Source: an uncultured Ruminococcus sp.
GTDB lineage: Bacteria > Bacillota > Clostridia > Oscillospirales > Ruminococcaceae
Assembly: GCA_947627275.1 (NCBI GenBank)
Contig: CANQVK010000014.1
Span: 666-64,665, forward strand
Length of the DNA stretch: 64,000 nt
Reading direction: 5' to 3'
The notes below the pieces were generated by a model. That model saw only the letters and a list, made by a program, of their open reading frames with translations. It was not told the origin of the DNA and ran no database searches. Made by a program: the position numbers and the translations under genes. How positions within the stretch are numbered: position 1 is the stretch's first letter; every line of letters begins with the position of its first letter. Shown here in pieces: positions 1,361 through 51,840 of the stretch.

Positions 1361-1385
1361 TAGTAATCCATGAATGGAGGATGTT

Positions 1386-2489
1386 ATGAAAAAAGAAATT
1401 ATTACAATAATGTCTGCTTTTATTTGTTTTTCTTCTTTTTCCTGCAACGACAAAGATGTTTCATCAAATAAAAACGAGATCGCATTTGCATTTTTAGGTG
1501 GGAGTTGCTATGGTAACGGCATGATACATAGCAGCGATCCAGTGAGATATATAGATTTTAATACTATGGAAAGCAGCGTTCTATGCGCCAAACCGAATTG
1601 TGAACATAAAACATCGGAGTGTGTTGCAAAGCTTGTCGGAGACTGCCCCATTATGTATAATGACTATTTGTATTACTTCACTTCAACTCAAGGCGTTGAA
1701 GAAACAGGAAATGGAAAGCGCGAATACAAGATAAACTCAAAGCTGTGCAGGGTATCTCTTGATTCGTCGGAATCCGAGGATATTGCATATTTCACCGATT
1801 GTAAACCTCGCGACTATGACGGCTGGATGATTATAAATAATACTGTTTGGTTTATCGGAGATAATATGAATCCGACTCCTGACGAATATGGAAATATAGC
1901 GACAAGTAATCAGGGCGGAGAACATTACATTTGCAGTATTGATCTGGAAAGCAAGGAGTACGTTAACTATGGCAGCGTATATGACGGCGATAAGGAATAT
2001 GAGGAAGCCTCATGTACAAGCAGCGCTCAGATAAGAGGATATTATAATTCTAAAATTATGATTCGATATGAGTTCGCAAAAAGCTCTGAAACAAGAGGTC
2101 AGGATTTCAGGCGGAGATTTACGGAGTTAATGTTTGAATTTGATCCACAAACAAAAGAATTAAAAGAAAGCGATCTTCAAATGCCTTCTTATGTTGATGA
2201 GGATACATATGTGTATACGGATTTTGACCAAAACAAGACATATGTTATAGATAATTCAAAAACATATGAAGTAACATGTGATACAGGTCTTGATTCTTTT
2301 GCTGTAAACAATAAACTGTTTGTTTCTGATGAAGATAAATGGTATGATCTGACAGACTTGTCTGAGCATAGCATGGGCGAATATGCAGATTATGGCGTTG
2401 TTGCATTTTATGATAACTCTTATATTTTAAGTGATGGTAATATGAAATTCGTCAAACTCATCGAAGAAGAACTTCTTGCGCTAAAATAA
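1386..2489 (+). CDS. Lipoprotein paralog L1 (CxxPNCxH motif, probable beta-propeller-like)
   Basis: GGAGG RBS at 1376-1380, MKK start, lipobox SFSC, LCAKPNCEHKTSEC, ICSIDL..EY.NYGSVY, C-terminal KLIEEELLALK. Confidence 0.85.
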   Translation: MKKEIITIMSAFICFSSFSCNDKDVSSNKNEIAFAFLGGSCYGNGMIHSSDPVRYIDFNTMESSVLCAKPNCEHKTSECVAKLVGDCPIMYNDYLYYFTSTQGVEETGNGKREYKINSKLCRVSLDSSESEDIAYFTDCKPRDYDGWMIINNTVWFIGDNMNPTPDEYGNIATSNQGGEHYICSIDLESKEYVNYGSVYDGDKEYEEASCTSSAQIRGYYNSKIMIRYEFAKSSETRGQDFRRRFTELMFEFDPQTKELKESDLQMPSYVDEDTYVYTDFDQNKTYVIDNSKTYEVTCDTGLDSFAVNNKLFVSDEDKWYDLTDLSEHSMGEYADYGVVAFYDNSYILSDGNMKFVKLIEEELLALK

Positions 2490-2517
2490 TAAAAATTGAT
2501 ATATTTTTCTATACCTA

Positions 2518-2546
2518 TTGACAATATAACAAATATATGGTATAAT
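2518..2546 (+). promoter_or_regulatory. sigmaA promoter for small secreted gene S1
   Basis: TTGACA-17 nt-TATAAT, exact consensus. Confidence 0.85.
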
Positions 2547-2612
2547 AAAATTTATGAGAAACACGACTTAGGTTAGTTGAATTATAACGCTTAAAAAGCG
2601 GCGGCTTCCGTT

Positions 2613-2939
2613 ATGGCTGTAGCTTCTCTCGCTTCCGTAATGGTCGGCATGAGCTCAAGCGCTTATTACACATCTCGTCCTTTTGGGCATGGCTCAACTG
2701 CTTACAACGCAACATCTATAAACAATGTCTACGCTTCGATGAATACGACTTTGGAAAAAACATACATAAAGGTAGGAGTCACGAAACTGAATGATTATGA
2801 CGTAAACGAATACTTTTCCGGCTCTGTTACGGATCATGTAGAGACAACTGCGTATGAATTAGGCATAAACAAGTCAACTTCTTACCACCAAGAGGGTAAA
2901 CTCGGTTACACTTACACTAATATCACTATGAACGCATAA
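2613..2939 (+). CDS. Small secreted-type protein S1 (signal-peptide n-region lost)
   Basis: MAVASLASVMVGMSSSA hydrophobic/cleavage segment nearly identical to S3; upstream codons homologous to S3 TFKKVVASV are frame-broken; no strong SD. Confidence 0.7.
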   Translation: MAVASLASVMVGMSSSAYYTSRPFGHGSTAYNATSINNVYASMNTTLEKTYIKVGVTKLNDYDVNEYFSGSVTDHVETTAYELGINKSTSYHQEGKLGYTYTNITMNA

Positions 2940-2951
2940 AAAATTATATTG

Positions 2952-3013
2952 TTGACTGGCTGCTGATGATCTGCGGCAACAGAACATGTAAGGGCATCAG
3001 CGGCTGTCAGCAA
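2952..3013 (+). terminator. Stem-loop between S1 and L2
   Basis: GCTGCTGATG / CATCAGCGGC inverted repeat extended by TGAC/GTCA. Confidence 0.55.
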
Positions 3014-3046
3014 TTTTAATTTATAGTATTGCAAAGAGGGGATATA

Positions 3047-4203
3047 ATGAAAAGAAACATATTTATTTTGTCAGTTCTTTTTTTATTTTTGCCATTAGTA
3101 TCATGTGAGGGTAAAAAAGAAAATCCAACTAATGAGTTTAATAATGAAATTATATATATATAGAAAGGTTGAATAACAATTATGGTGACGGCAAAATAAT
3201 AGGCTCATCTCATAAATTATCTGAGAATTATCTTAAATATTTAAAATATCAGGATATGAGTACTGCACCTTTTTGTTCTAAACCAAACTGCACTCATAAA
3301 ACAGATGACTGTTTGGCAAAAGCAGTAGGAAATTGTCCGATACTCACAAAAAACGGCGTATTTTTTTTCAGTGATAAATATGGAGTGGAAGAGAAAAAAG
3401 ATGGAAAAAGAGAATTTGAAATTGATTCCAAATTGTGCAGAGCATCTTTGGATTCTTCTGAAATCGAAACAGTCGCCGAATTTACAGACTGTGTTCCGCG
3501 TGAATATGACGGCTGTATGGTAATAGACGGCGTTTTGTGGTTTACCGGTGATGATATGAATCCCATTACCAATGAATATGGGGCTATTATATCGTCAAAC
3601 GTGGGCGGAACTCATTATTTATGCAGTATTGATCTTAAAACAGGCGAATATACAAATTACGGAAGTGTATATAACGGCGAGAATTACGACAAATCAAGTC
3701 ATGCGTCCATTGTTGGATATTACAACTCAAATCTGTTGATTAATTATGAATACGCAGCATCGCCGGATTATGAAGACCCAAGTGCGCCGTGGTTTGGTTT
3801 GAGCGATTTAATGTTTGAATTTGATCCGAAAACAAAAGAAATGAAGGTTTCCGATATTCCGTCAAGACCGATTTTCTTTGATTTGGAGTCGGAAACATTG
3901 GCTTACTGTGAATATGACGCCAACAAGATAATTGTATTGGCAGATAACAAGAGATATGAACTTAATATGGATATTGCTAAGATTGATGGCGGTATCGCCA
4001 ACTATGCTCCTGTTTATAATAATAAAATCATTATGCTTGGCAGCGGAAAGTGGTATGATATAACAGATCAATCAGAACATTATCTAGGTGAATATGCCGG
4101 TTGGGATTTTGAAGATTACTATGACGGTTGTTACATTTTATCCAACCCAAGAAGAACCAAATACGTCAAACTTACTGAAGAAGAACTTCTTGCGCTAAAA
4201 TAA
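3047..4203 (+). pseudogene. Lipoprotein paralog L2, frameshifted at a (TA)6 tract (possibly phase variable)
   Basis: ATG 3047 gives MKRNIFILSVLFLFLPLVSC (lipobox) and stops at TAG 3161-3163. Removing one TA from 3151-3162 joins it to ORF 3169-4203 (FCSKPNCTHKTDDC; KLTEEELLALK). Confidence 0.85.
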
Positions 4204-4221
4204 TAAAATTCGATAGATATA

Positions 4222-4342
4222 CTAGACGCTATTGAAAAATGCCCAAAGGATGCAGAACAGAAAATCCGTATGTCAAGGAAGATGACGCAGACAGACGGAT
4301 TTTATGTCTGCCTTACTGGATATTTTTCAATAGCGGCGAGTG
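4222..4342. mobile_element. MITE-like hairpin repeat element, copy B (left-truncated copy of A)
   Basis: CGCTATTGAAAAAT / ATTTTTCAATAGCG inverted repeat; core TATGTCAAGGAAGATGACGCAG; colinear with 1241-1360. Confidence 0.6.
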
Positions 4343-4383
4343 TAACATACGATAAAAACGATAATCAAAATTCAGGAGATTTT

Positions 4384-5541
4384 ATGAAAAATAAAATATT
4401 ATTTGCAACTGTTATAGTGGCATTTTTGACGTCAGGATGCGGCGGCAATGATGTAACTTCAAAAGGTAATATTCAGTCGGATAGCGATTTTACTTCTACT
4501 CATTCAGACGACAGCGTTCATAATTGCATTGATGCTCAATATATAGATTCAGGGGAAAATATATATGATAATGGCATGATCTATGGAAGTGACGCTCCCA
4601 AAACCTATTTGGATTTTGAAACAATGGAAAAGACTGTTTTATGCGCATTGCCTAATTGCAATCACTCCACATCTGAATGTATTGCTGCAAAAATTGGCAG
4701 AACTCCTATTATCTTTAATGACTATATTTATTATTTTGATGTTAAAGATGGTGTAAAAGAAAATTCGGATGGCAGAGAATTTTACATAGATTCTCAACTT
4801 AAGAGAGTTTCACTGACAAATTCTGAAATTGAAGACATAGTTCAATTTACAGATTGTGAACCCAGAGAATACGGTGGATGCGTTATTCTTGACGGAATTC
4901 TTTATTTTTGCGGCGATGACATGAATCCTACCAAGGACGAATATGGCGGAATATCTTATGCTAATGGAGGCGGTACTCATTTTTTATGTAGTATTGATCT
5001 TAATACGGGTGAATATGTTAATTATGGAAGTATTTACGATGAAGATAAGCAATATGAAAGCTCGGCTCAGACGAGTACTGCCCATGTAATCGGTTATTAT
5101 AATTCCAAGATTTATATCCAATATAGTTTTATGAAGGAATATATTGACGATCCGAACATTGAAACTCGTGAAAAATTCACGATCCTTAATTTTGAATTTG
5201 ACCCTTTAACAGGAAATTTGTCGCAAAGCGAACTTCTGTCGGGTTCGTTTATGAATGGAAATACCTATGTTTGCAGTAATTATCCTGACAATTCATCAAC
5301 TGTTATAGATGGCGATCAGAAATATACAATCAATGGAGCGGACGCAAAATTTGTTGGGAAATATTTCGACAAAAAGCTATTTGTTTACGATCGTTGGTAT
5401 GATGTTACAGATAAATCGTTGCATTTGCTTGGAGAAGATCGAAAATTTGTAACTATGTATGAGAATTTCTATATTATATCCAACCAATCAGGAACTAGAT
5501 ATGAAAAACTCACCGAAGAAGAACTTCTTGCACTAAAATAA
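4384..5541 (+). CDS. Lipoprotein paralog L3
   Basis: CAGGAG RBS then MKNKILF...LTSGC lipobox; LCALPNCNHSTSEC; KLTEEELLALK. The ORF-track start at 4270 lies inside the repeat element. Confidence 0.85.
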   Translation: MKNKILFATVIVAFLTSGCGGNDVTSKGNIQSDSDFTSTHSDDSVHNCIDAQYIDSGENIYDNGMIYGSDAPKTYLDFETMEKTVLCALPNCNHSTSECIAAKIGRTPIIFNDYIYYFDVKDGVKENSDGREFYIDSQLKRVSLTNSEIEDIVQFTDCEPREYGGCVILDGILYFCGDDMNPTKDEYGGISYANGGGTHFLCSIDLNTGEYVNYGSIYDEDKQYESSAQTSTAHVIGYYNSKIYIQYSFMKEYIDDPNIETREKFTILNFEFDPLTGNLSQSELLSGSFMNGNTYVCSNYPDNSSTVIDGDQKYTINGADAKFVGKYFDKKLFVYDRWYDVTDKSLHLLGEDRKFVTMYENFYIISNQSGTRYEKLTEEELLALK

Positions 5542-5569
5542 TAAAAATTTATATATTTTTCTATATCTA

Positions 5570-5598
5570 TTGACAATATAGAAAATATATGGTATAAT
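5570..5598 (+). promoter_or_regulatory. sigmaA promoter for S2
   Basis: TTGACA-17 nt-TATAAT. Confidence 0.85.
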
Positions 5599-5663
5599 AA
5601 AATTTATGAGGAAACGACTTAGGTTAGCTGAATTATAACGCTTAAAAAGCGGCAGCTTCCGTT

Positions 5664-5996
5664 ATGGCTATTTCAACACTTGTTGTAAGCACAGTTGGAG
5701 TTAACACGAATGCTTATTGGGCAACTGTGTCTTTTGCTAATGATTATGCAACAGCATATAATGCAACAAGTTATAATTCTGTATATGCTTACACTGATTC
5801 AAGTGTTTCAAATACTACAAGAACGGTTTATATTGCAAATGTGAATTATAATGTCAATCCATTGCGTTCTCCTTACTTTAAATCAAGTACTAATGGTAGG
5901 GTTGTAGCCAATTATACTGGCTCAGGATTTAACACCTCTAAAACGGATCATTCTTTAGCAGGCTACGGTAGCCATTCAATTTATATGAATGCTTAA
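5664..5996 (+). CDS. Small secreted-type protein S2 (n-region lost)
   Basis: MAISTLVVSTVGVNTNA signal remnant; shares TAYNATS.N.VYA and C-terminal MNA with S1; same damaged 5' region as S1. Confidence 0.7.
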   Translation: MAISTLVVSTVGVNTNAYWATVSFANDYATAYNATSYNSVYAYTDSSVSNTTRTVYIANVNYNVNPLRSPYFKSSTNGRVVANYTGSGFNTSKTDHSLAGYGSHSIYMNA

Positions 5997-6006
5997 ACGA
6001 AATAAT

Positions 6007-6039
6007 AAGGCTGTTGTTATAAATTGATGCAACAGCCTT
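6007..6039 (+). terminator. Stem-loop between S2 and L4
   Basis: AAGGCTGTTG / CAACAGCCTT perfect 10-bp stem. Confidence 0.65.
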
Positions 6040-6065
6040 TGTTCGTATGAAAGGAAAAGATTATA

Positions 6066-7202
6066 ATGAAAAAAATTGCTTATTATGCAATTGCCATGTT
6101 ATTTGCTTTATCATCATGTAACAGTAAGAATGAAACAAAAAACATTTTAATTGAAAGTAATGATAACATATTCGTTGCAGAGTATGCTGATAATTATAAA
6201 AACGGACGAATTATTGGCGGCAACTCTGAAGGAAACACCGATGCACCGTCAATGTATGTAGATTACAATACTATGGAGAAAACAATTCTTTGTTCTAAAC
6301 CAAATTGTACTCATAAAAATAGCGAGTGTCCGGCAAAGGTTATTGGAACTGCTCCAATACTTACAGAAAATAATATATGTTTTTTTGATTGCAGTTATGG
6401 TGTTGTAGAAAAAAAGAGTGGAAAGAGAGAATTGGAAATAAATTCTAAATTATGTAAATTATCTTTAGATACATCTGAAATAGAGACAATTGTTGAATTT
6501 AATGATTGCGTGCCGGATAATTCAAGAGGCTTTGTTCTTAACGATAATAAAATATATTTTACCGGAGACGATCTTGATCCAACATCGGATGAATACGGAG
6601 GAATTTTTTATTCCAATATAGGCGGAACTCATTATTTATGTAGTATTGATCTTAAAACAGGCGAATATACAAATTACGGAAGTATTTATGACGATGACAA
6701 AAAATTTGAAGGAGCAAAAAGTTCCAGCTCGGCAAGAATATTGGGGATATATGATTCTAAGCTGATTATAAATTATGAATTTAGCAAAACGAACGATGAT
6801 GCGGTCTATGGAAATTTTACTGAACTTGTATTTGAGTTTGATTTTGATTCCAATCAATGGACACTAAGCGATATTCCAAATATGCCAATTTTTGTTGATT
6901 ATGATACTATAGTCTATTATGATAATGATATAGATAGATGTATTATAATTGATAATGGAGAACGTACGGAACTTGATACTGGTAAAGTTACTCTTGCTTC
7001 AATTCAAAATAATAAGCTTTTTATTCGTGATGATTTGAATAATTTTGCTTTAAAATGGTATGACCTTTCGGATATGTCAAAGCATCATGTAAAAGGATAT
7101 GATGGCTATATGCCAGTAAGTATTTACAATGATAGCTACATTCTTACAAGAGGTAATAATACAGCTAAACTCACCGAAGAAGAACTTCTTGCACTAGAAT
7201 AA
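6066..7202 (+). CDS. Lipoprotein paralog L4
   Basis: MKK...ALSSC lipobox; LCSKPNCTHKNSEC; KLTEEELLALE. Confidence 0.85.
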   Translation: MKKIAYYAIAMLFALSSCNSKNETKNILIESNDNIFVAEYADNYKNGRIIGGNSEGNTDAPSMYVDYNTMEKTILCSKPNCTHKNSECPAKVIGTAPILTENNICFFDCSYGVVEKKSGKRELEINSKLCKLSLDTSEIETIVEFNDCVPDNSRGFVLNDNKIYFTGDDLDPTSDEYGGIFYSNIGGTHYLCSIDLKTGEYTNYGSIYDDDKKFEGAKSSSSARILGIYDSKLIINYEFSKTNDDAVYGNFTELVFEFDFDSNQWTLSDIPNMPIFVDYDTIVYYDNDIDRCIIIDNGERTELDTGKVTLASIQNNKLFIRDDLNNFALKWYDLSDMSKHHVKGYDGYMPVSIYNDSYILTRGNNTAKLTEEELLALE

Positions 7203-7230
7203 TAAAAATTGATATATTTTTTTATACCTA

Positions 7231-7259
7231 TTGACAAATTGGAAATAATATGTTATAAT
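7231..7259 (+). promoter_or_regulatory. sigmaA promoter for S3-L5-ABC unit
   Basis: TTGACA-17 nt-TATAAT. Confidence 0.85.
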
Positions 7260-7431
7260 GACATTGACGATAAAAAATATCATAACTCAAACTAATTAAA
7301 TTACAATAATAAGGTTAATTCAAAATTAATTTGTGGTCAGTTTTATTGTATATGGTAGGCTGAACTCAACATTATTTTAAAGGGCATAACATACGATAAA
7401 AACGATAATCAAAATTCAGGAGGTAGTTAAT

Positions 7432-7779
7432 ATGAAAAAAACTTTTAAAAAAGTGGTAGCTTCCGTTATGGCTGTAGCTTCTCTCGCTTCTGTTGTGGTC
7501 GGCATGAGCGCAAGCGCGGCAACTGGATACACTTCAAATCTTTCTGGTGGAACAGGCTCTTTGAGCGTTTCAGACGGTTTTGTATATGCTTCGACAACTT
7601 CAAGTAAAGCACAGTATTTGTACGTTGGAATAACAAGAACCACTCCCGAGGGAAATACTGATAGTGATGGCGGAAAAGGCAGAACCAGTGCTAGTGCAAC
7701 AGTATATGGTGACTATTCTCACGCATGGTCTTTTCATCAGACAGAAACAGGCAGCGATACTTTATCAGTAGGAAGATAA
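7432..7779 (+). CDS. Small secreted protein S3 with intact Sec signal peptide
   Basis: GGAGG RBS; MKKTFKKVVASVMAVASLASVVVGMSASA signal; Ser/Thr/Gly-rich ~86-aa mature part. Confidence 0.85.
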   Translation: MKKTFKKVVASVMAVASLASVVVGMSASAATGYTSNLSGGTGSLSVSDGFVYASTTSSKAQYLYVGITRTTPEGNTDSDGGKGRTSASATVYGDYSHAWSFHQTETGSDTLSVGR

Positions 7780-7790
7780 AATGAACTTAA

Positions 7791-7823
7791 GTGAAACCAT
7801 ACGAGCAATTCGTATGGTTTCGC
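7791..7823 (+). terminator. Stem-loop between S3 and L5
   Basis: GAAACCATACGA / TCGTATGGTTTC perfect stem. Confidence 0.65.
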
Positions 7824-7845
7824 AATATTTATAAGGGGCGTTTAA

Positions 7846-8988
7846 ATGAAATTTTTGATTAAAGCGATACTTGTGCCTGTTTCAATGTTGTTCCTTTTTG
7901 CGTGCGGAAACAACGGTGATACGCTGAATGAGGAAAAAATCCAAACTCAGGGATATGTAAAGGCTGTATGTAATTTATACAATAACGGTCGTATTTATAA
8001 CGATCAAAAAGCCATGTATGTAGATTTTGATACGCTCGAATCCGTTCCCCTCTGCTCTAAACCCAATTGTAATCATACGAGTTCGGACTGCGTTGCAAAT
8101 ATGGTCGGACAATGCCCGATAGTATATAATAACTACGTTTATTATCTGACTTTCAAGCATGGAGTTAATGAAGTCGGAAACGGAAAAAGAGAGTTTTATA
8201 TAAATTCAAAACTTAACCGTGTTTCAATGGAAACATCTGAAATGGAAACTGTTAAAGAGTTTCATGATGGTGTTCCAATTATTGCAGACGGATATTATCT
8301 GAATGGGAATGAACTATATTTTATAAGTACTGATATGGGACCTGACGAAGACGAATACGGAAATATATCTGTATCTGATTTTGGCGGAACACAGTTTTTA
8401 TGCTGCATCAACCTTGATACCGGAGAATACATAAATTATGGAAGTGTTTATGAAGGTGATAAACAATACGAGGGAGCGTCTCATTCGCGTGCCGCTACTA
8501 TAATCGGCGCAAAAGATTCAAAATTATATATTTTTTACAGCTATCGTGAAAAGAATTATTCTGTGGAAGAATTGCAGAAAATGCAGGAATCAGGCGTTGA
8601 TATGCAGGATACTTTTACTGATCTGAATTTCGAGTTTGATATGAATACAAAAACACTGTCCGAAAGTGAGCTTCCAGCACTGTCATATGTGGACTCAGAT
8701 TCGTATGTTTATTATGATCATACAAAAGAAAAAGCAATAGTTTTTTATCGTGGAAATGAATATGAGCTTGATGCTGATACGAGATATAATACATCAGTTA
8801 TCAACGGAAAGTTATTTACGCAGGATACACAGAAATGGTACGAATTAAGCGATATGTCAGAACACGATATGGGAAAGTACGGTAATTTTAAAGCAATAGC
8901 GTATTATGACAACTGCTATATTCTTGCATATGAAAATCAAACCGTCAAACTCACCGAAGAAGAACTTTTGGCGCTTGACAAGGAGTGA
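7846..8988 (+). CDS. Lipoprotein paralog L5 (coupled to ABC ATPase)
   Basis: LFAC lipobox; LCSKPNCNHTSSDC; KLTEEELLALDKE; its 3' end carries the AGGAG RBS of the next gene. Confidence 0.85.
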   Translation: MKFLIKAILVPVSMLFLFACGNNGDTLNEEKIQTQGYVKAVCNLYNNGRIYNDQKAMYVDFDTLESVPLCSKPNCNHTSSDCVANMVGQCPIVYNNYVYYLTFKHGVNEVGNGKREFYINSKLNRVSMETSEMETVKEFHDGVPIIADGYYLNGNELYFISTDMGPDEDEYGNISVSDFGGTQFLCCINLDTGEYINYGSVYEGDKQYEGASHSRAATIIGAKDSKLYIFYSYREKNYSVEELQKMQESGVDMQDTFTDLNFEFDMNTKTLSESELPALSYVDSDSYVYYDHTKEKAIVFYRGNEYELDADTRYNTSVINGKLFTQDTQKWYELSDMSEHDMGKYGNFKAIAYYDNCYILAYENQTVKLTEEELLALDKE

Positions 8989-8993
8989 TGATC

Positions 8994-9734
8994 GTGAATA
9001 AGCTTGGATTGCAGAAGATAAACAAGCACTACGGCAAGAAAAAACATGCGCTATGCGACTTTACATTTGAATTTACCAACGGGATTTACGGACTTCTCGG
9101 ACCGAACGGAGCAGGCAAATCCACGCTTATGAACATTATTACGGATAATCTTCTCCCCGATAAGGACGGCGGAAAAATTTTCTGGAACGGCGAGGAAACG
9201 AGGCTTCTCAAAGATAAATTCCGCAGCCGATTAGGATTTATGCCTCAGCAGCAGAACCTCTATGAGAGCATGACTGCGCGGAAGTTTTTGAACTATATTG
9301 CTGCGCTGAAATGCCTTGATAAAAGGTCGGCTGAAAAGGAGATCTCCGAAATAGTAGAGCGTGTAGAGCTTACCGACAGCATTGACAAAAAAATGGGCGG
9401 ATTTTCGGGCGGAATGAAGCAGAGAGTGCTGATTGCCGCCGCGCTTCTGGGCGACCCCGACCTTATAATCCTTGACGAGCCGACGGCAGGTCTTGATCCG
9501 AAGCAGAGGGTAATAATCCGCAATATGGTTTCGGTTTTGGGCAGGGACAAAATAATCATTATTTCGACGCATATCGTCTCGGACATTGAAACGATAGCAA
9601 AGGAGGTACTTTTCATAAAAGAGGGGCATCTGATAGACAGCGGTACTATGCCCGACCTGACCGAAAAGGTCGAAAGCGGCGATAAGACCCTTGAAAACCT
9701 GTATATGCAGTACTACGGCGAGGTGCAGTCATGA
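8994..9734 (+). CDS. ABC transporter ATP-binding protein
   Basis: Walker A GPNGAGKST, signature FSGGMKQR, Walker B IILDEP, H-loop STH. GTG 8994 is best spaced from the RBS (alternatives 8985/8988). Confidence 0.95.
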   Translation: MNKLGLQKINKHYGKKKHALCDFTFEFTNGIYGLLGPNGAGKSTLMNIITDNLLPDKDGGKIFWNGEETRLLKDKFRSRLGFMPQQQNLYESMTARKFLNYIAALKCLDKRSAEKEISEIVERVELTDSIDKKMGGFSGGMKQRVLIAAALLGDPDLIILDEPTAGLDPKQRVIIRNMVSVLGRDKIIIISTHIVSDIETIAKEVLFIKEGHLIDSGTMPDLTEKVESGDKTLENLYMQYYGEVQS

Positions 9735-11902
9735 GAGTTTTGGCTACAGAACTTAAAAAGCTGCTGAGCAATAAAATTTTCCTGCTGATAATTGCCGCTG
9801 TTTTCGTTCTGAACGGCTATCTTATGTTCAGGACGGCGAACTCGGGCGACGCCAAGCCTGCGGACTACAAAGCCGTTTATGCGGAGCTTGAAGGTCTGAG
9901 CGATACCGAGAAGCTTCAATGGCTCAATGACAGGCTCGGTGAATTTGAGGGGCAGCATTCGTTCAGTTGGACGGTTTTAGGCGAGCTTCGTGATGAAGCC
10001 GCAAATATTGCGGGCTATTCGGACTATCTTGATTCTATAGATTCACAGGCGAGATCAATGACGAGCGTTTCGATTTTTGCAAAGCCCGACACTTTCAACT
10101 ACCGCAGCATTGTGAGAACTCCGCCCGCATATGACAAGGTACGTGACGTTGAGCCGATTTTTGACGTTTCAAAGGGAATCGCCCTTGCAACGGACAACAG
10201 CTTCACGGATATTTTGAGCGGCTTTATTGTGCTGTTTGCTGTTTTGGCGCTGATGATCTCCGACAGAGAGCAGGGAATGTCGGGACTTCTTTTTTCTTTA
10301 AGGCGGGGCCGCAGCTATTTGCTCCTGAGTAAAACAGGCGCGCTTGCAATTGCGATTTTCGGCGCTATATTGCTTATTTATGCCGAGAATCTCATAATAG
10401 CTTCTTGTCTGTACGGTCTGGGCGAGCTGTCAAGACCCGTTCAGTCTCTTAACGGATTTATCGGCTGTAATCTGAAAATAAGCGTTATTGGATATTTGAT
10501 CTTATACGTTCTGTTCAAGTTCATTGCAATGTTTGTGATCGGAGCGTTTCTTTCGCTTATTGCGGTGAATACTAAAAATATCGTATCTTTTTACGGCATA
10601 TCGGCAGTTATCCTGATTGCGGAGGGCGTTGCCTATGCGAAGATACATCCGCTGTCGATATACAGTATTTTCAGATATATCAATCTTATTTCGTTTACAA
10701 AGGTCAACGAGATATTCTGCAATTACAAAAACATAAATTTTTGGGAATATCCCGTTCCGCTGATACCGACTTCTATTGGCGCAGTACTTGTCATCGCTGC
10801 GATATGCGTTGTGTTGTCATCGTATATGTACGCAAAGAAACGTAATCTTGAATTCAGAAAAATCGGATTCAAATTCAGGTTCGGGAAAGGAAATAAAATT
10901 CATTCCAGACTTTATTATACGCTTTACAAGTCGCTCATAATGCAAAAGGGAATATTTATTATCGCCGTTTTTATTGTGGTATCTGTATTTATGGGTGAAG
11001 CCTTTATCAAAAAATACGACCCCATCGACGTCTATTACGAATATTATACGACTGAAACAGAGGGCGAAATTACGCAGGAAACCATTGATTTCTACGACAG
11101 TGAAGCTATCAGGTTCGATGAGCTTAACGCGCGTCTGGAAAATCCCGATATTACCTCTGAGGAGGAAAGAGAAATTTATAAGCAGCTTGCGCCGACAATG
11201 GGATTTTATCCGTCGTATGAACGCCTGAATCAAATCAAGGACATCGAAAACGCGCATATTTTTTACGATACGGGATATAAACGCGCGTTTGGAATAAACG
11301 GTTATGACGATGATATGAAATACGCATTTGCGGCGATACTGCTTTGTCTGTTTCTGATCTCTCCGCTGATAGCCAATGACAATAAATATCGGATGAAATC
11401 GGTTATCAATTCTACAAGCTCAGGCAGAAAAAGTTATATCCGCAGAAATATTTTAACGGCTGCGCTGTATGGATTTGCGGCGTCGCTTCTGTGGATAATT
11501 CCCTATATGGTCACTATTTCCCGATATTACGGACACGGCGGACTTTCGGCTTCGATACGCAGTATCACTGATCTTATAAATTTTCCTCTGAACATCAGCG
11601 TATTGCAGTATATAATTCTTATATGCCTGCTGAGAACAGTTTCCGTACTTTTTACAGCTATGATAATGCTCTGGGTATCTTCGATGTGCAGGAATGTAAT
11701 TTCGGCTGTGCTTATTAATTTCGCCGTATTTGCTCTGCCGATCATAATTTATTTGCTCGGTGCGGAATTTATGGCGAATATCGGATTTAATCCTCTGCTA
11801 AGCGTTAATGTTATGTTAAATGAATTTTCAATTGTGCAGATCATGATACCGCTAATTGGCGTAATTGCAGTTATGATCTGTGAAATTCAAAATAGAAAGT
11901 GA
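9731..11902 (+). CDS. Large ABC-2-like exporter permease with two similar halves and extracellular loops
   Basis: ATGA overlap with the ATPase; many TM segments; repeated motifs SDREQGMSGLLFSLRRGR / NDNKYRMKSVINSTSSGR. Confidence 0.85.
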   Translation: MRVLATELKKLLSNKIFLLIIAAVFVLNGYLMFRTANSGDAKPADYKAVYAELEGLSDTEKLQWLNDRLGEFEGQHSFSWTVLGELRDEAANIAGYSDYLDSIDSQARSMTSVSIFAKPDTFNYRSIVRTPPAYDKVRDVEPIFDVSKGIALATDNSFTDILSGFIVLFAVLALMISDREQGMSGLLFSLRRGRSYLLLSKTGALAIAIFGAILLIYAENLIIASCLYGLGELSRPVQSLNGFIGCNLKISVIGYLILYVLFKFIAMFVIGAFLSLIAVNTKNIVSFYGISAVILIAEGVAYAKIHPLSIYSIFRYINLISFTKVNEIFCNYKNINFWEYPVPLIPTSIGAVLVIAAICVVLSSYMYAKKRNLEFRKIGFKFRFGKGNKIHSRLYYTLYKSLIMQKGIFIIAVFIVVSVFMGEAFIKKYDPIDVYYEYYTTETEGEITQETIDFYDSEAIRFDELNARLENPDITSEEEREIYKQLAPTMGFYPSYERLNQIKDIENAHIFYDTGYKRAFGINGYDDDMKYAFAAILLCLFLISPLIANDNKYRMKSVINSTSSGRKSYIRRNILTAALYGFAASLLWIIPYMVTISRYYGHGGLSASIRSITDLINFPLNISVLQYIILICLLRTVSVLFTAMIMLWVSSMCRNVISAVLINFAVFALPIIIYLLGAEFMANIGFNPLLSVNVMLNEFSIVQIMIPLIGVIAVMICEIQNRK

Positions 11903-11907
11903 GAGAC

Positions 11908-12675
11908 ATGAAGAAAAAAATTATATCAGCAGTGTGTATACTGTTGGCTATGAATTTAATTAGCTGTGGAAGCTGGGCAGATCCATATCCGATAGATTAT
12001 TCGGCAAAGGACAATCTTGCGATAGAGTATATGAATGGAAAATATGGTGAAAATTTTAACATTTCCGTAGGCACGATAAGTGAGCATACATGGGCTCCAA
12101 TGGAAGAACCTTTCAGCGTATATTACTATACAATGGTAAGTCCTGAGGGTGCGGCAGAGGATGAAAAATATTACGTCTATTCCGATGACAACGAAACTCA
12201 TGAAGAGTCATGGATAGTCGGCGATGGCTATATGATGAACATTGTTGAGCCGTATATCAGACAGTTTGTTGAGGAATCTCTGAAAGAACACGCTCCCTGT
12301 GCTGATACGTATTTCATTATATGGGGGGCGGGAAGTGCAGATATTCGTGAACAAACGACATTATTTACAAGCACTTTCTGCTTCAGTCCTGATTTTCCTG
12401 TTATCTCATCATACGATGAGTTTTTAGAGGAAGCGAAAAATGTTTACCTTGATTTGTGTATATTTGTACCTGATTCCGAGCAGAATATTGATTCTGTAGC
12501 TCAGGACTGGCAGGAATGGCGAGAATATATGTATGGTAACTTTAATGAAGGGATAAATCTTTGGTTGGAAACTGTCGAGGACGAGAGCTTTTTCGGGGCG
12601 GATGATACGTTACCGGATAAACACTTGAATTTTAAAACAACACATACAATAAACCTAAAGGATTGGAGAGAATAA
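11908..12675 (+). CDS. Acidic lipoprotein of unknown function (unrelated to L1-L5)
   Basis: MKKKIISAVCILLAMNLISC lipobox; AIEYMNGKYGENF N-terminal motif. Confidence 0.75.
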   Translation: MKKKIISAVCILLAMNLISCGSWADPYPIDYSAKDNLAIEYMNGKYGENFNISVGTISEHTWAPMEEPFSVYYYTMVSPEGAAEDEKYYVYSDDNETHEESWIVGDGYMMNIVEPYIRQFVEESLKEHAPCADTYFIIWGAGSADIREQTTLFTSTFCFSPDFPVISSYDEFLEEAKNVYLDLCIFVPDSEQNIDSVAQDWQEWREYMYGNFNEGINLWLETVEDESFFGADDTLPDKHLNFKTTHTINLKDWRE

Positions 12676-12711
12676 AATGAGCAGAGAAAACAACATTGAT
12701 TTAGATGAAAT

Positions 12712-12807
12712 AATGTTATGTTAAATGAATTTACGCCGGTGCAGATTGCGATCCCTGCATTGGCATTGGTAGGTTTTGCCGTCAGGAAAAAACTTTATAA
12801 ATTATAG
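12712..12807 (+). pseudogene. Orphan alternative C-terminus of the ABC permease
   Basis: 12711-12732 is identical to 11806-11827; reads NVMLNEFTPVQIAIPALALVGFAVRKKLYKL* versus permease NVMLNEFSIVQIMIPLIGVIAVMICEIQNRK*. Confidence 0.8.
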
Positions 12808-12836
12808 TGAACGTAAAAATAAATTTTACGTTCGCT

Positions 12837-12885
12837 ATAGACCTCCTCGGAAATCGGAGAAGCGCTGGATTCCGAGGAGGTCTAT
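12837..12885. terminator. Strong hairpin closing the accessory locus
   Basis: ATAGACCTCCTCGGAA / TTCCGAGGAGGTCTAT 16-bp inverted repeat; a second hairpin lies at 12808-12835. Confidence 0.6.
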
Positions 12886-13003
12886 TGAATTTCCTGCAAA
12901 GCGAAAGCGTCCCCTGCTAAAGTTGACGGTCAAAGCTGGACAAATAAAAAAAAATGTGGTATAATAATTTCTGCAATAAAAAATCAAAGCAGAGGTAAAA
13001 AAT

Positions 13004-14155
13004 ATGAACAAAAAAGAGACAGCAGAGATAAAGAAGAACTTTTCGGATAAAAGCGGATTTTTCATTATGGACAGAGTTCTTACGGGCTTTGTGGACGCAG
13101 AAAAAAACGTCCGCTACTATAAAACGTCGTCGTGTCTGACGATGCCTGTTGAGGAGCATGACGTATACGATGAAACGCTGAAAAAAGTCCTCAACACAAA
13201 CGTGGGAAAGAATTTCTGCGAATATCAGTTTCCAAACGAAGCCTACGAGGAGGGACAGCCGCAGGAGATACTTTACAGTCTGCTCCGTTCTGAGCTTAAG
13301 GACGACATTATCTGCGAGAATTTCATGAATCATATAGCGAACAATTTCAGTCACGAAGGGCCGTATGCGGTCATTACGGCATATTGTACATACACTATCC
13401 GCCGCAAGGACAAAAACGACGAGTTTGCGGAGGGCGAGGACGAGCTTTACCGCTATCTGCTCACAGCGCTCTGTCCCGTGAATACAGGCAGCGACGGCTT
13501 TGTTTTCGACAGCTTCAATAACGAGATAACAAAGAAAGTAAACACCGAACTTATCATCAGCAAAGCGCCCTCCGAGGGATTTTTGTATCCTGTTTTCAGC
13601 AACAGAAGCTCCGATATAAACCATGTAATGTGTTATATGAAGTCCGCCTCAAAGCCGAATATTTCGCTTGTTGAGAACGTTCTGGGCTGTACGTTCGTGA
13701 TGTCTGCGGATAACGAAAAGGCAAGCTTTCAAAATATTCTTAAGGGCGTTGTAGGCGACGATCTGGACTATATGGTCATAAAGACCGTAAATGAAAAGCT
13801 ACAGGAGGTAGTTGAGGAAAATAAGGACGATACGGACAAAACAGTCATTGACAATTCCAAGCTTAAGGGTATTCTTACCGATATAGGGATCCCACAGGAG
13901 CGTGTAGAGATGACGGACCCTGTGTACGAGAAATTCTGCGGAGACGCGCCGCTTACCGTGAGCAATCTTATCGAGACGAAAACGGTGCTGACTTCTCCCG
14001 GAATAACCGTGAATATCAAGCCGTCGGCAGCCGATAAGGTGCGTACAAGCGTGGTAAACGGACGGCGATGTCTGCTTATAGATCTTGACGACCCCACCAT
14101 TGAAATAAACGGTCTGCCTGTCAGACTGGAGGAGAAAAAGGAGGTCATGGCATAG
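13004..14155 (+). CDS. DUF4317 family protein
   Basis: MNKKETAEIKKNF start and FLYPVFSNRSSDINH motif recognised as typical of this Clostridia family; RBS GAGGT. Confidence 0.8.
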   Translation: MNKKETAEIKKNFSDKSGFFIMDRVLTGFVDAEKNVRYYKTSSCLTMPVEEHDVYDETLKKVLNTNVGKNFCEYQFPNEAYEEGQPQEILYSLLRSELKDDIICENFMNHIANNFSHEGPYAVITAYCTYTIRRKDKNDEFAEGEDELYRYLLTALCPVNTGSDGFVFDSFNNEITKKVNTELIISKAPSEGFLYPVFSNRSSDINHVMCYMKSASKPNISLVENVLGCTFVMSADNEKASFQNILKGVVGDDLDYMVIKTVNEKLQEVVEENKDDTDKTVIDNSKLKGILTDIGIPQERVEMTDPVYEKFCGDAPLTVSNLIETKTVLTSPGITVNIKPSAADKVRTSVVNGRRCLLIDLDDPTIEINGLPVRLEEKKEVMA

Positions 14156-14173
14156 AAACGCCTATCATCGTTA

Positions 14174-14334
14174 AGAGCCTGTTTAGTATCTCGGCGTGTG
14201 CGAATTTTCGAGCATAATTTTGCCGAATACAAGTCAAAAATCCACAGGCATATTGTCATATGGCAAGGATTTTTAACGCAGTAATCGGAAAATTTGCTGA
14301 AAATACGTGCGTGAGGAGATACTAAACAGGCTCT
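14174..14334. mobile_element. MITE-like element, copy C
   Basis: Perfect 18-bp terminal inverted repeats AGAGCCTGTTTAGTATCT / AGATACTAAACAGGCTCT; core CAGGCATA..TATGGCAAGGATTTTTAACGCAG. Confidence 0.75.
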
Positions 14335-14422
14335 AAAACAGGGGGACAAAGCCCCCCTGACAAATTAACGATATTGGGCAGGCACGCAGTATTGCGAGGT
14401 CTGCCGTGTTTCTTTTGACGAT

Positions 14423-16716: not shown

Positions 16717-16889
16717 AAAGCTTCTCCTTTTTTTCCGATAAAACTGTTTAAGAATTTTTGAACAGGTCTTATAATAACTAAAATTCATTATACCATATAC
16801 AGGGAAAAAATGCAAGCTTTTTTTAAAATTATTTTATCTCTCCCGCACGAAAATCAATTTTCAAAATATATTCAGTAAAATTTTCTAAA

Positions 16890-16919
16890 TGTAGGGACAC
16901 GGCACGCCGTGTCCCTACA
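16890..16919. repeat. REP-like palindrome with GTAG end
   Basis: TGTAGGGACACGG-CACG-CCGTGTCCCTACA perfect 13-bp arms. Confidence 0.7.
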
Positions 16920-17043
16920 AATTCATATATTTCACATTATCTTTTAAAATTGATTTTCGTGTATCAAGAAGCAGCTTCTTGACAAAAGCAATGGATTATT
17001 GTATAATAAACTTATCAAAAAAAGCTGAAAAGGAGTTTTTATT

Positions 17044-51491: not shown

Positions 51492-51577
51492 TGGTGGGAG
51501 AGGATGGATTCGGACCATCGAAGCTGAAAAGCAACAGATTTACAGTCTGCCCCCTTTGGCCACTCGGGAACTCTCCC
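51492..51577 (-). tRNA. tRNA-Tyr (GTA)
   Basis: Cloverleaf GGGAGAG...CTCTCCC ACCA; anticodon arm GCAGA-CTGTAAA-TCTGT; long variable arm. Confidence 0.95.
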
Positions 51578-51611
51578 ATACAATTTTTGTTTATCGGCTT
51601 TGACCGATAAA

Positions 51612-51687
51612 TGGAGCTGGTGGACGGACTCGAACCCCCGACCTGCTGATTACAAATCAGCTGCTCTACCAACTGAGCTACACCAGC
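51612..51687 (-). tRNA. tRNA-Thr (TGT)
   Basis: GCTGGTG...CACCAGC TCCA; anticodon arm CTGAT-TTGTAAT-CAG; GGTTCGAGTCC. Confidence 0.97.
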
Positions 51688-51702
51688 TTAACTGACTTAA
51701 TA

Positions 51703-51731
51703 ATTATACCACAAGCTTTTAAATTTGTCAA
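51703..51731 (-). promoter_or_regulatory. sigmaA promoter for tRNA-Thr/Tyr
   Basis: Minus strand TTGACA-17-TATAAT. Confidence 0.8.
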
Positions 51732-51763
51732 GCTTTTTTTGAAATTTTTTCAAAAAATTTTTA

Positions 51764-51840
51764 TGGTCGAGGCGACAGGACTCGAACCTGCGGCATCTTG
51801 GTCCCAAACCAAGCACTCTACCAAACTGAGCTACGCCTCG
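51764..51840 (-). tRNA. tRNA-Pro (TGG)
   Basis: CGAGGCG...CGCCTCG ACCA; anticodon arm CTTGG-TTTGGGA-CCAAG. Confidence 0.97.

Follow-up and report, generated by a model that had tools for sequence, protein, structure and literature searches.

The 64,000-nucleotide (nt) stretch of DNA analysed here (hereafter the window) originates from an uncultured Ruminococcus sp. (assembly GCA_947627275.1, contig CANQVK010000014.1), and this report deals with the 3' end of a gene encoding the permease of an ATP-binding cassette (ABC) transporter, where a displaced gene end, a lipoprotein gene and the beginning of an effector gene probably form a fixed recombination scar and not an active mobile cassette. 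The permease gene (9731-11902, + strand, like the other features of this locus) encodes a multi-pass protein of 723 amino acids (aa) and now ends in a segment referred to as tail A. The last conserved block of the permease (residues N693-F699) is specified by a 22-nt sequence, the core (copy 1, 11806-11827), which constitutes the left boundary of a variable module. It is followed by tail A itself (11828-11902; SIVQIMIPLIGVIAVMICEIQNRK and a stop codon), i.e. the present last transmembrane helix (mean Kyte-Doolittle hydropathy of the hydrophobic stretch 2.5), and by a co-inherited gene encoding a 255-aa lipoprotein with the lipobox LISC (11908-12675), which is lineage-specific, hypervariable and mosaic. 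Next is an effector-gene stub (12677-12724), a 15-codon open reading frame (ORF; MSRENNIDLDEIMLC) whose first 11 codons (12677-12709) correspond to the effector 5' end; its ATG lies at 12677, and not at 12678 as given in an earlier analysis made from the letters of the window (the sequence-only reading). Beyond the boundary of the effector gene and a permease 3' fragment (12710/12711), interpreted below as an illegitimate joint, core copy 2 (12711-12732) starts the displaced fragment and the orphan tail B (12733-12807) completes it. Tail B is an alternative last helix with its own stop codon and no upstream coding frame; in its frame, a TGA stands directly before core copy 2.

The two core copies (TAATGTTATGTTAAATGAATTT) are exact, with a spacing of 905 nt and 883 bp between them. 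No third site was found in the window even with three mismatches allowed, and none of 100 shuffles gave two matches (0 expected). The similarity of the two copies has a sharp left edge, with none upstream of 12711, and beyond the 22 nt it continues only weakly to the right (45% nucleotide identity and 6 of 25 aa, chiefly a VQI.IP motif). Copy 2 reads on in the same frame as TPVQIAIPALALVGFAVRKKLYKL, with the stop codon at 12805-12807. The exact 22-bp direct repeat with an in-frame alternative last helix, described by the sequence-only reading, was thus borne out by both the coordinates and the shuffles. The whole arrangement (hereafter W) is identical in assemblies L034 (98.2% identity over 9 kb) and L035 and in Logan contigs of runs X1, X2 and X17, and its presence in independent assemblies and runs shows that it is real and inherited. 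An assembly artefact as the source of the repeat is ruled out by the agreement of independent assemblies. The W junction is inherited in strains that are up to 8% diverged across the cassette region.

Comparison with a related locus identifies tail B as a genuine former C-terminus of the permease. An 87%-identical ortholog, P0003 (loci L002/L003/L004; Ruminococcus sp. metagenome-assembled genome (MAG) GCA_017622925.1), ends with NVMLNKFTPMQLAVPTLVLVGFAIRKKTL, which is of the tail-B type, and in these loci the order is permease, core, tail B and then a terminator hairpin shared with the window. In BLASTN searches against L002 the window aligned over 9001-11827, with the alignment resuming at 12711-12799 and then in the shared hairpin; given this gap from 11827 to 12711, the window differs from the L002 allele by exactly the repeat-bounded segment. 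In silico deletion between the repeats yields an intact 723-aa permease with tail B, as expected from the earlier proposal that recombination at the repeat would delete the lipoprotein gene and restore the other tail. Displacement of the permease C-terminus, also proposed earlier, is confirmed by L002, which has tail B as its real C-terminus and provides both the empty site and the functional form of the orphan tail, the two observations whose absence the sequence-only reading had named as refuting its proposal. The tail B of the window shows 82% nucleotide identity to that of L002, and 14 codons differ between them, comprising 6 synonymous changes and 8 conservative replacements; these 6 synonymous and 8 nonsynonymous differences give no evidence of selection. 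Core copy 2 and tail B are undecayed in the window, L034 and L035.

The stub reveals what the segment between the repeats was cut from. It matches locus L040 (MSEENNIDLDETIKYDSASLIGE...) and aligns with the start of the effector gene of loci L036 and L044 up to position 12710. This gene encodes a protein of about 1,480 aa (more than 957 aa in L036 and 1,479 aa in L044) with Mbeg1-like (DUF2974)/Lipase_3 and SPM domains and RTX calcium-binding repeats. In L044 the effector locus also includes an agr-type quorum-sensing module, a second RTX protein, a C39-peptidase ABC exporter and an HlyD-like adaptor, and the effector is apparently secreted by a C39-ABC/HlyD-type (type-I-style) system. Locus L040 is about 99% identical to the window over 2 kb of the permease gene; it shares the core exactly and tail A almost so, and over 12358-12657 its lipoprotein allele has 100% identity to that of L035. 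Past the stub, the ORF of L040 remains open (MSEENNIDLDETIKYDSASLIGESEEKFPDTVTTPVEL...). Likewise, contigs of runs X7, X8 and X12 depart from W right after 12710 and continue with the effector sequence CTATTAAATATGATTCAGCG, and the window and L035 in turn depart from the effector sequence exactly after 12710. At this point GATGAAA is followed by CTATTAAAT in the effector gene (CTATT side) and by TAATGTTATG in the window, the permease side of the joint being AGCGT/TAATG, and inspection of the aligned sequences revealed no clear microhomology. The joint fuses effector codon 11/12 to permease codon 693 and so truncates an unrelated sequence. Since the effector gene continues in L040, X7, X8 and X12, the right end of the presumed "cassette" is an arbitrary cut in a gene.

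Starting from the 3' end of this herbivore-gut Ruminococcus permease gene, close relatives carry one of at least three segregating allele types. These are: (i) E, permease with tail B and then the terminator (L002); (ii) F, tail A, lipoprotein gene and the large lipase/RTX effector gene (L040, X7, X8 and X12); and (iii) W, tail A, lipoprotein gene and stub joined to core and tail B (the window, L034, L035, X1, X2 and X17). A further arrangement, D, consists of tail A, two tandem lipoprotein genes, each with a stub, and then the terminator (L005 and X16). The permease bodies of L005 (filled site) and L002 (empty site) are mostly 91-99% identical (87-89% in a few sequence windows), and that of the window is 65-97% identical to L005 or L002. 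Tail A and the lipoprotein signal peptide are 96-100% identical in the window and L005, and this block is bordered by permease sequence of 85-90% identity on one side and mature lipoprotein sequence of 60-85% on the other; the identity climbs from 85-90% to 100% at core copy 1. In the comparison of the window with X7/X8/X12, divergence falls from about 12% to about 1.4% between 11816 and 11862. The left junction is the boundary of the conserved and variable parts of the permease, and the identity breakpoints lie in or just after the core, which marks the core as the left crossover point, or homology arm, used when the module of tail A and lipoprotein gene is exchanged between lineages.

Among the fetched loci that reach the tail (tail sites located by a tblastn anchor), a second core is present in W, L034 and L035 alone and in none of the 23 others. 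The second stub of L005 departs from the effector frame within one nucleotide of the window joint, and its post-joint sequence matches the core better than 99.9% of random 22-mers of the window (position-anchored, P about 0.001); an unanchored alignment of the L005 post-junction sequence to core and tail B was not significant (p = 0.15). The position of the break suggests that L005 most likely descends from the same junction event and that its orphan has since eroded, as expected of a scar.

The W arrangement is probably a chimeric allele, produced by one illegitimate joint and homologous recombination between an effector-bearing (F) and a tail-B (E) allele. Both parental types were seen, E in L002 and F in L040, X7, X8 and X12. 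W would consist of the left part of F, through effector codon 11, joined to the right part of E, and the E part would begin 22 nt before the point at which tails A and B diverge, which would leave the core duplicated. Because these 22 nt lie between the broken end of the E fragment and the A/B divergence point, they would occur two times, and the repeat would represent an overlap of the parents and not a recombinase core. We infer that the pathway was homology-facilitated illegitimate recombination (HFIR), with one long homologous arm and one illegitimate end-join, a model put forward earlier to explain how orphan immunity genes and orphaned 3' regions arise at type VI secretion system (T6SS) and Rhs loci (PMC5361080). 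In the likeliest direction, a tail-B fragment anchored in the flank made up of the terminator and the DUF4317 gene would have replaced the effector gene of an F recipient; the reverse direction of exchange would give the same product. The outcome in either case would be a lipoprotein gene kept, an effector gene lost and tail B left as an untranslated scar.

Several observations weigh against the origin of W as such a chimera. The F allele was followed as far as the effector gene; its far end may carry core and tail B, and W would then have arisen from F by internal deletion. The sole empty site (L002) is 14% diverged, and no E allele with a W-like permease body was found. The orphan tail B is intact in W (22/22 in the core, open frame), while the L005 copy has decayed; the intact state fits a younger age or gene flow. 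Moreover, HFIR joints usually show a few nucleotides of microhomology, and there is essentially none at 12710/12711.

The first of these points is taken up by an account in which a long segment (tail A, the lipoprotein gene, the effector gene and perhaps more) inserted at the core with a 22-bp duplication and W arose by a later deletion from effector codon 12 to the second core. The filled and empty sites do differ by exactly the repeat-bounded segment, which is the classical signature of insertion with duplication, and F alleles are widespread, with a far end that was never seen. This account is nevertheless unlikely: a deletion that ends exactly at the left edge of the second core would be a coincidence, no recombinase is present nearby, and runs X7, X8 and X12 contain no contig matching 12722-12823 at 85% identity or more, although they are of low depth and represent a diverged lineage.

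Quite unlikely, too, is a Campbell-type event, in which a circularised F fragment of about 905 bp (from the core to effector codon 11) would have entered a tail-B allele by a single crossover in the 22 bp. It yields the exact topology and accounts for the duplication as the 22 nt shared by both partners; the right joint would then stem from circularisation, in keeping with the lack of microhomology. Efficient RecA-dependent recombination usually requires homology as long as these 22 bp or longer, two rare steps would be needed, no circle junction was seen in contigs of 12 runs, and the end product is the same as that of the chimeric origin favoured here.

In another account, the lipoprotein, the lipase/RTX effector and the terminal permease helix would make up one co-adapted, swappable module, with the intact tail B kept in reserve for a return to the permease through deletion between the 22-bp repeats. 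If this were true, the permease tail would be specific for its lipoprotein/effector partner, the ABC system would take part in self-protection or export, and the logic of the "polymorphic C-terminal tip" would reach a transporter subunit in Gram-positive gut bacteria. This is very unlikely.

About one quarter of the permease orthologs (P0004, P0006-P0009, P0013, P0014, P0029, P0035 and P0043, among others; loci L007, L020 and L032) end a few codons past the core (NWFLR, NRFFL) and have no last helix, and since several orthologs lack it, the identity of the tail is probably not critical. The residue N697 is the last nearly invariant column of the permease, and tails vary in all orthologs. Short-tail forms are interleaved with long-tail forms when orthologs are ranked by identity to the window permease. 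Repeated truncation at one site was considered as their origin and dropped, as there is no orphan downstream; they look like a separate tail variant.

The sequence-only reading had proposed an excisable att-type cassette of about 905 bp, i.e. a unit made of a replacement tail and the lipoprotein gene, which would now be moved by a recombinase encoded elsewhere. Identical direct repeats were indeed found at both junctions (22/22), relatives have an empty site delimited by the core, the gene has received another 3' end, and the lipoprotein gene occurs in two other genomic contexts. The proposal is still highly improbable, because the right end cuts a gene that continues, intact, in the sister alleles (L040 and X7/X8/X12) and because copies of the lipoprotein gene elsewhere (L036 and L038) have other boundaries and no core, so that the element ends do not recur wherever the gene occurs. 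Pfam scans of the likely genes (at least 100 aa) of the 64 kb revealed no integrase, resolvase, recombinase or transposase, in agreement with the earlier statement that no integrase is visible in the window. No attC-like site or inverted repeat was found at the insert ends (12676-12732) and no intI in the window, and the structure, fixed across strains, has decayed in L005. Neither an empty-site junction nor a circle junction was found in the assembled contigs of 12 runs, which are of low depth; this is weak evidence, since assembled contigs drop rare variants. Two related candidates were also rejected: recurrent use of an att site, as no second core is present at the other fetched loci, and an integron cassette, as there is neither an attC nor an intI.

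It is no less improbable that tail B is a silent reserve C-terminus, brought into use by a one-way deletion switch that drops the lipoprotein gene and changes the permease tail, for although the deletion product is intact and the orphan is undecayed in W, L034 and L035 with conservative differences from L002, no deleted form was found in contigs of the W lineage, the L005 orphan has decayed, L007, L020 and L032 have no last helix at all, and the 6 and 8 codon counts are no sign of selection.

The lipoprotein belongs to a very rare family: a search of 5.8 billion proteins yielded only 11 clusters, none of them below 66% identity. It had no Pfam or NCBIfam match, and no known immunity family was among its matches. 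The gene was not found at this operon in the other species sampled, and a scan of metagenome contigs with the lipoprotein alignment returned the L005 contig alone. As asked for by the sequence-only reading, variation of the gene at this site was assessed among strains: it is hypervariable, with the variability located in the mature part, its alleles are mosaic, and it is absent from E (L002). An AlphaFold2 model of the protein was poor (predicted local distance difference test score 59), and the single Foldseek match, a DUF5037 lipoprotein at a TM-score of about 0.3, was not used for function.

In L036, L040 and L044 the lipoprotein gene is located directly upstream of the lipase/RTX effector gene, and in L036/L037 and L044 the two are translationally coupled. 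DUF2974/Mbeg1-like and class-3 lipase domains are listed among antibacterial effectors of type IV secretion systems (T4SS) and T6SS, whose cognate immunity proteins are often lipoproteins (PMC6536674, PMC11854122). Taken together, the lipobox, the rarity, the hypervariable mature part, the lipase-like RTX effector as a neighbour and the parallel with the immunity lipoproteins of T4SS/T6SS effectors suggest that the protein is possibly a cognate protection (immunity) protein, which in W would have been orphaned by effector loss. The lipoprotein and the lipase/RTX effector would then be a candidate immunity pair in Ruminococcus.

The upstream flank of the lipoprotein gene in L036 and L044 holds the final codons of tail A with the 12-nt insertion of the second copy of L005. 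From this tail A remnant and the shared insertion, the L036/L044 copies appear to be derived from a permease-adjacent tandem array, and the gene would accordingly have moved between loci without recognisable mobility functions. In L005 (8169-9756) the lipoprotein gene is tandemly duplicated, together with the last approximately 25 nt of tail A and a 6-codon effector stub. A third context is found in L038 and L041-L043, where the gene lies downstream of a small membrane protein or a Na/Ca exchanger; the gene after it encodes a protein of 268-274 aa that weakly matches DUF4259 (MGTWGTGIFQND...), and the group is perhaps a small island of protection-type genes. The lipoprotein gene at 1359-2114 of L044 contains an in-frame TAG and is a possible pseudogene or an assembly error. 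In run X6, one contig omits 135-136 nt near the lipoprotein 3' end (12532-12668) and stops exactly at 12710; it is either one more allele or the product of a branching of the assembly at the joint.

The permease gene is preceded by that of its ABC transporter ATP-binding protein (8985-9734, + strand; Pfam ABC_tran, 2e-29), with a start/stop overlap. The best NCBIfam matches of the ATPase are ABC-2/DrrA/GldA-type ATPases, all below the cut-offs, and on the strength of these family matches the pair is classed as an ABC-2/DrrA-like, exporter-type system. The permease itself has no Pfam or NCBIfam match; it has 132 homologs at E <= 1e-5, of which the named ones are from Ruminococcus/Oscillospiraceae and a few carry PF12679. 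It is the final gene of an operon composed of four to five pairs of genes for a small and a large protein, the ABC ATPase and the permease. The tandem pairs (1374-8988) each encode a secreted protein of about 110 aa (e.g. at 2613-2939, 5664-5996 and 7432-7779) and a lipoprotein of about 345-425 aa (about 380 aa). The large lipoproteins have a common CxKPNCxH..xxC motif and a C-terminal KLTEEELLALK and are about 40% identical among themselves; neither this family nor the paired small proteins had a Pfam or NCBIfam match. The number of large lipoprotein genes ranges from 1 to 5 among related loci, L007 alternates small and large pairs, and such pairs stand before the ABC ATPase/permease genes in every species examined. 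Within the permease gene, a stretch of about 250 nt (10223-10472) is only 65-70% identical between the window and both L005 and L002, which are 97% identical to each other, and is a second hypervariable or recombined patch. In L035 (3374-5545) the permease is called as two ORFs (428 and 234 aa), owing to a possible pseudogene or assembly error.

Downstream of tail B, two stem-loops (folding energy of the two -47.5 kcal/mol, z = -8.5) separate the scar from the conserved right flank. Stem-loop 1 (12803-12839, + strand) has 16-nt arms with 94% complementarity and is found in the W lineage, not in L002 or L005. Stem-loop 2 (12837-12885, + strand) is terminator-like, with perfect 16-nt arms, and is common to all allele types here; in L002 it follows tail B, and in L005 the stub. 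The right flank (12937-14155, + strand) consists of a near-consensus promoter (12937-12965; TGGACA-17-TATAAT with a TG, 11/12 matches) and a DUF4317 gene (13004-14155; Pfam 3e-108), which shows 100% amino acid and 95% nucleotide identity to that of L005; a CLC channel gene is next. Comparison of a loose end of X7 upstream of hairpin 2 with the effector 3' end gave no match.

Short intergenic segments of this region (12798-12839, 12837-12874, 12935-12966 and 12974-13008) have 85-95% identical copies on many unrelated contigs of the same metagenomes, a recurrence that marks them as dispersed repeats of the repetitive extragenic palindromic (REP)/terminator-like kind. A 39-nt-arm inverted repeat (14171-14337) lies between the DUF4317 and CLC genes, with similar copies near both ends of L005, and a repeat of about 120 nt (16846-16966) has copies elsewhere in L034; neither belongs to an Rfam family, and no fluoride riboswitch was found before the CLC gene. 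L005 carries a 47-nt direct duplication of promoter-like sequence upstream of DUF4317 (9937-10092). In L002, past the terminator/promoter-like segment, foreign-looking small genes (one DUF6017) occupy the place of DUF4317 (6330-9356), and this block is possibly an inserted element.

As a whole, the window is chromosomal DNA of a cellulolytic Ruminococcus and has a housekeeping character: the 64 kb also encode dockerin/leucine-rich repeat proteins, GH9 and GH10 enzymes, a fab cluster and penicillin-binding protein/FtsW. Three tRNA genes in a row (51495-51840, - strand) are the sole Rfam hits in the window. The runs that best hold the window sequence are rabbit gut metagenomes, and the named relatives are Ruminococcus or Oscillospiraceae MAGs.

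The locus offers a base-pair-resolved example of how variable, competition-related loci of uncultured gut Firmicutes would be rebuilt: a conserved 3' block serves as a recombination arm, modules are swapped behind it, and an illegitimate joint strands a gene end and a toxin stub. It also points to a lipoprotein family, very rare and hypervariable, that travels with a lipase/RTX effector of the type-I-secreted kind, and reveals that in a part of the population the effector gene is lost and the lipoprotein gene retained. Furthermore, it warns against taking a small insert for a mobile cassette on the sole ground that short exact direct repeats flank it.

Among known systems, orphaned 3' regions and orphan immunity genes have been described at Rhs, contact-dependent growth inhibition (CDI) and T6SS loci (Kirchberger et al. 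2017, PMC5361080; Koskiniemi et al. 2014, PMC3967940). The permease locus resembles these in its conserved 5' and variable 3' gene parts, in the acquisition of a new 3' end with a small companion gene by anchored recombination, in the old 3' end pushed downstream without a start, and in the several alleles exchanged by homologous recombination. It differs in that the displaced end is a helix of an ABC-2 permease and not a toxin, the toxin gene being the truncated one, and in that the host is a Gram-positive Ruminococcus with a type-I-secretion-style RTX/lipase effector instead of one of a type V secretion system or T6SS. With elements that integrate at gene 3' ends (prophages, integrative and conjugative elements and integrative and mobilizable elements, with their attL/attR) it shares the direct repeats, the empty site and a replacement tail that keeps the frame; unlike them, it has no integrase, no mobility function in the 883 bp, an arbitrary right cut and no recurrence at orthologs. 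Integron cassettes are likewise small promoterless gene units behind a fixed point, with older material displaced downstream, but here there is no intI and no attI/attC-like imperfect inverted repeat at the unit end.

Tandem immunity-gene arrays (esaG/tsaI) of type VII secretion systems are described as evolving by homologous recombination between paralogues (Microb Genom 2022, PMC9484751). The tandem lipoprotein duplication of L005 and the mosaic alleles among strains are alike, whereas here there are two copies at most and the immunity role is a candidate one. Lipase-type antibacterial effectors with lipoprotein immunity partners are exemplified by X-Tfe/X-Tfi of the Xanthomonas T4SS (PMC6536674), and a DUF2974 domain occurs in a predicted T6SS effector (PMC11854122). 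The Ruminococcus locus is similar to these systems in its DUF2974/Mbeg1-like and Lipase_3 signatures and in the adjoining, translationally coupled lipoprotein gene, and is unlike them in that the lipoprotein gene is upstream of the effector gene, the lipoprotein has no sequence or reliable fold similarity to known immunity families, and secretion appears to be of the C39-ABC/HlyD type. Current understanding of such systems is not overturned by this locus, which is probably related to competition; its recombination scar is of a kind already known, here in a gene family and a phylum that are new for it.

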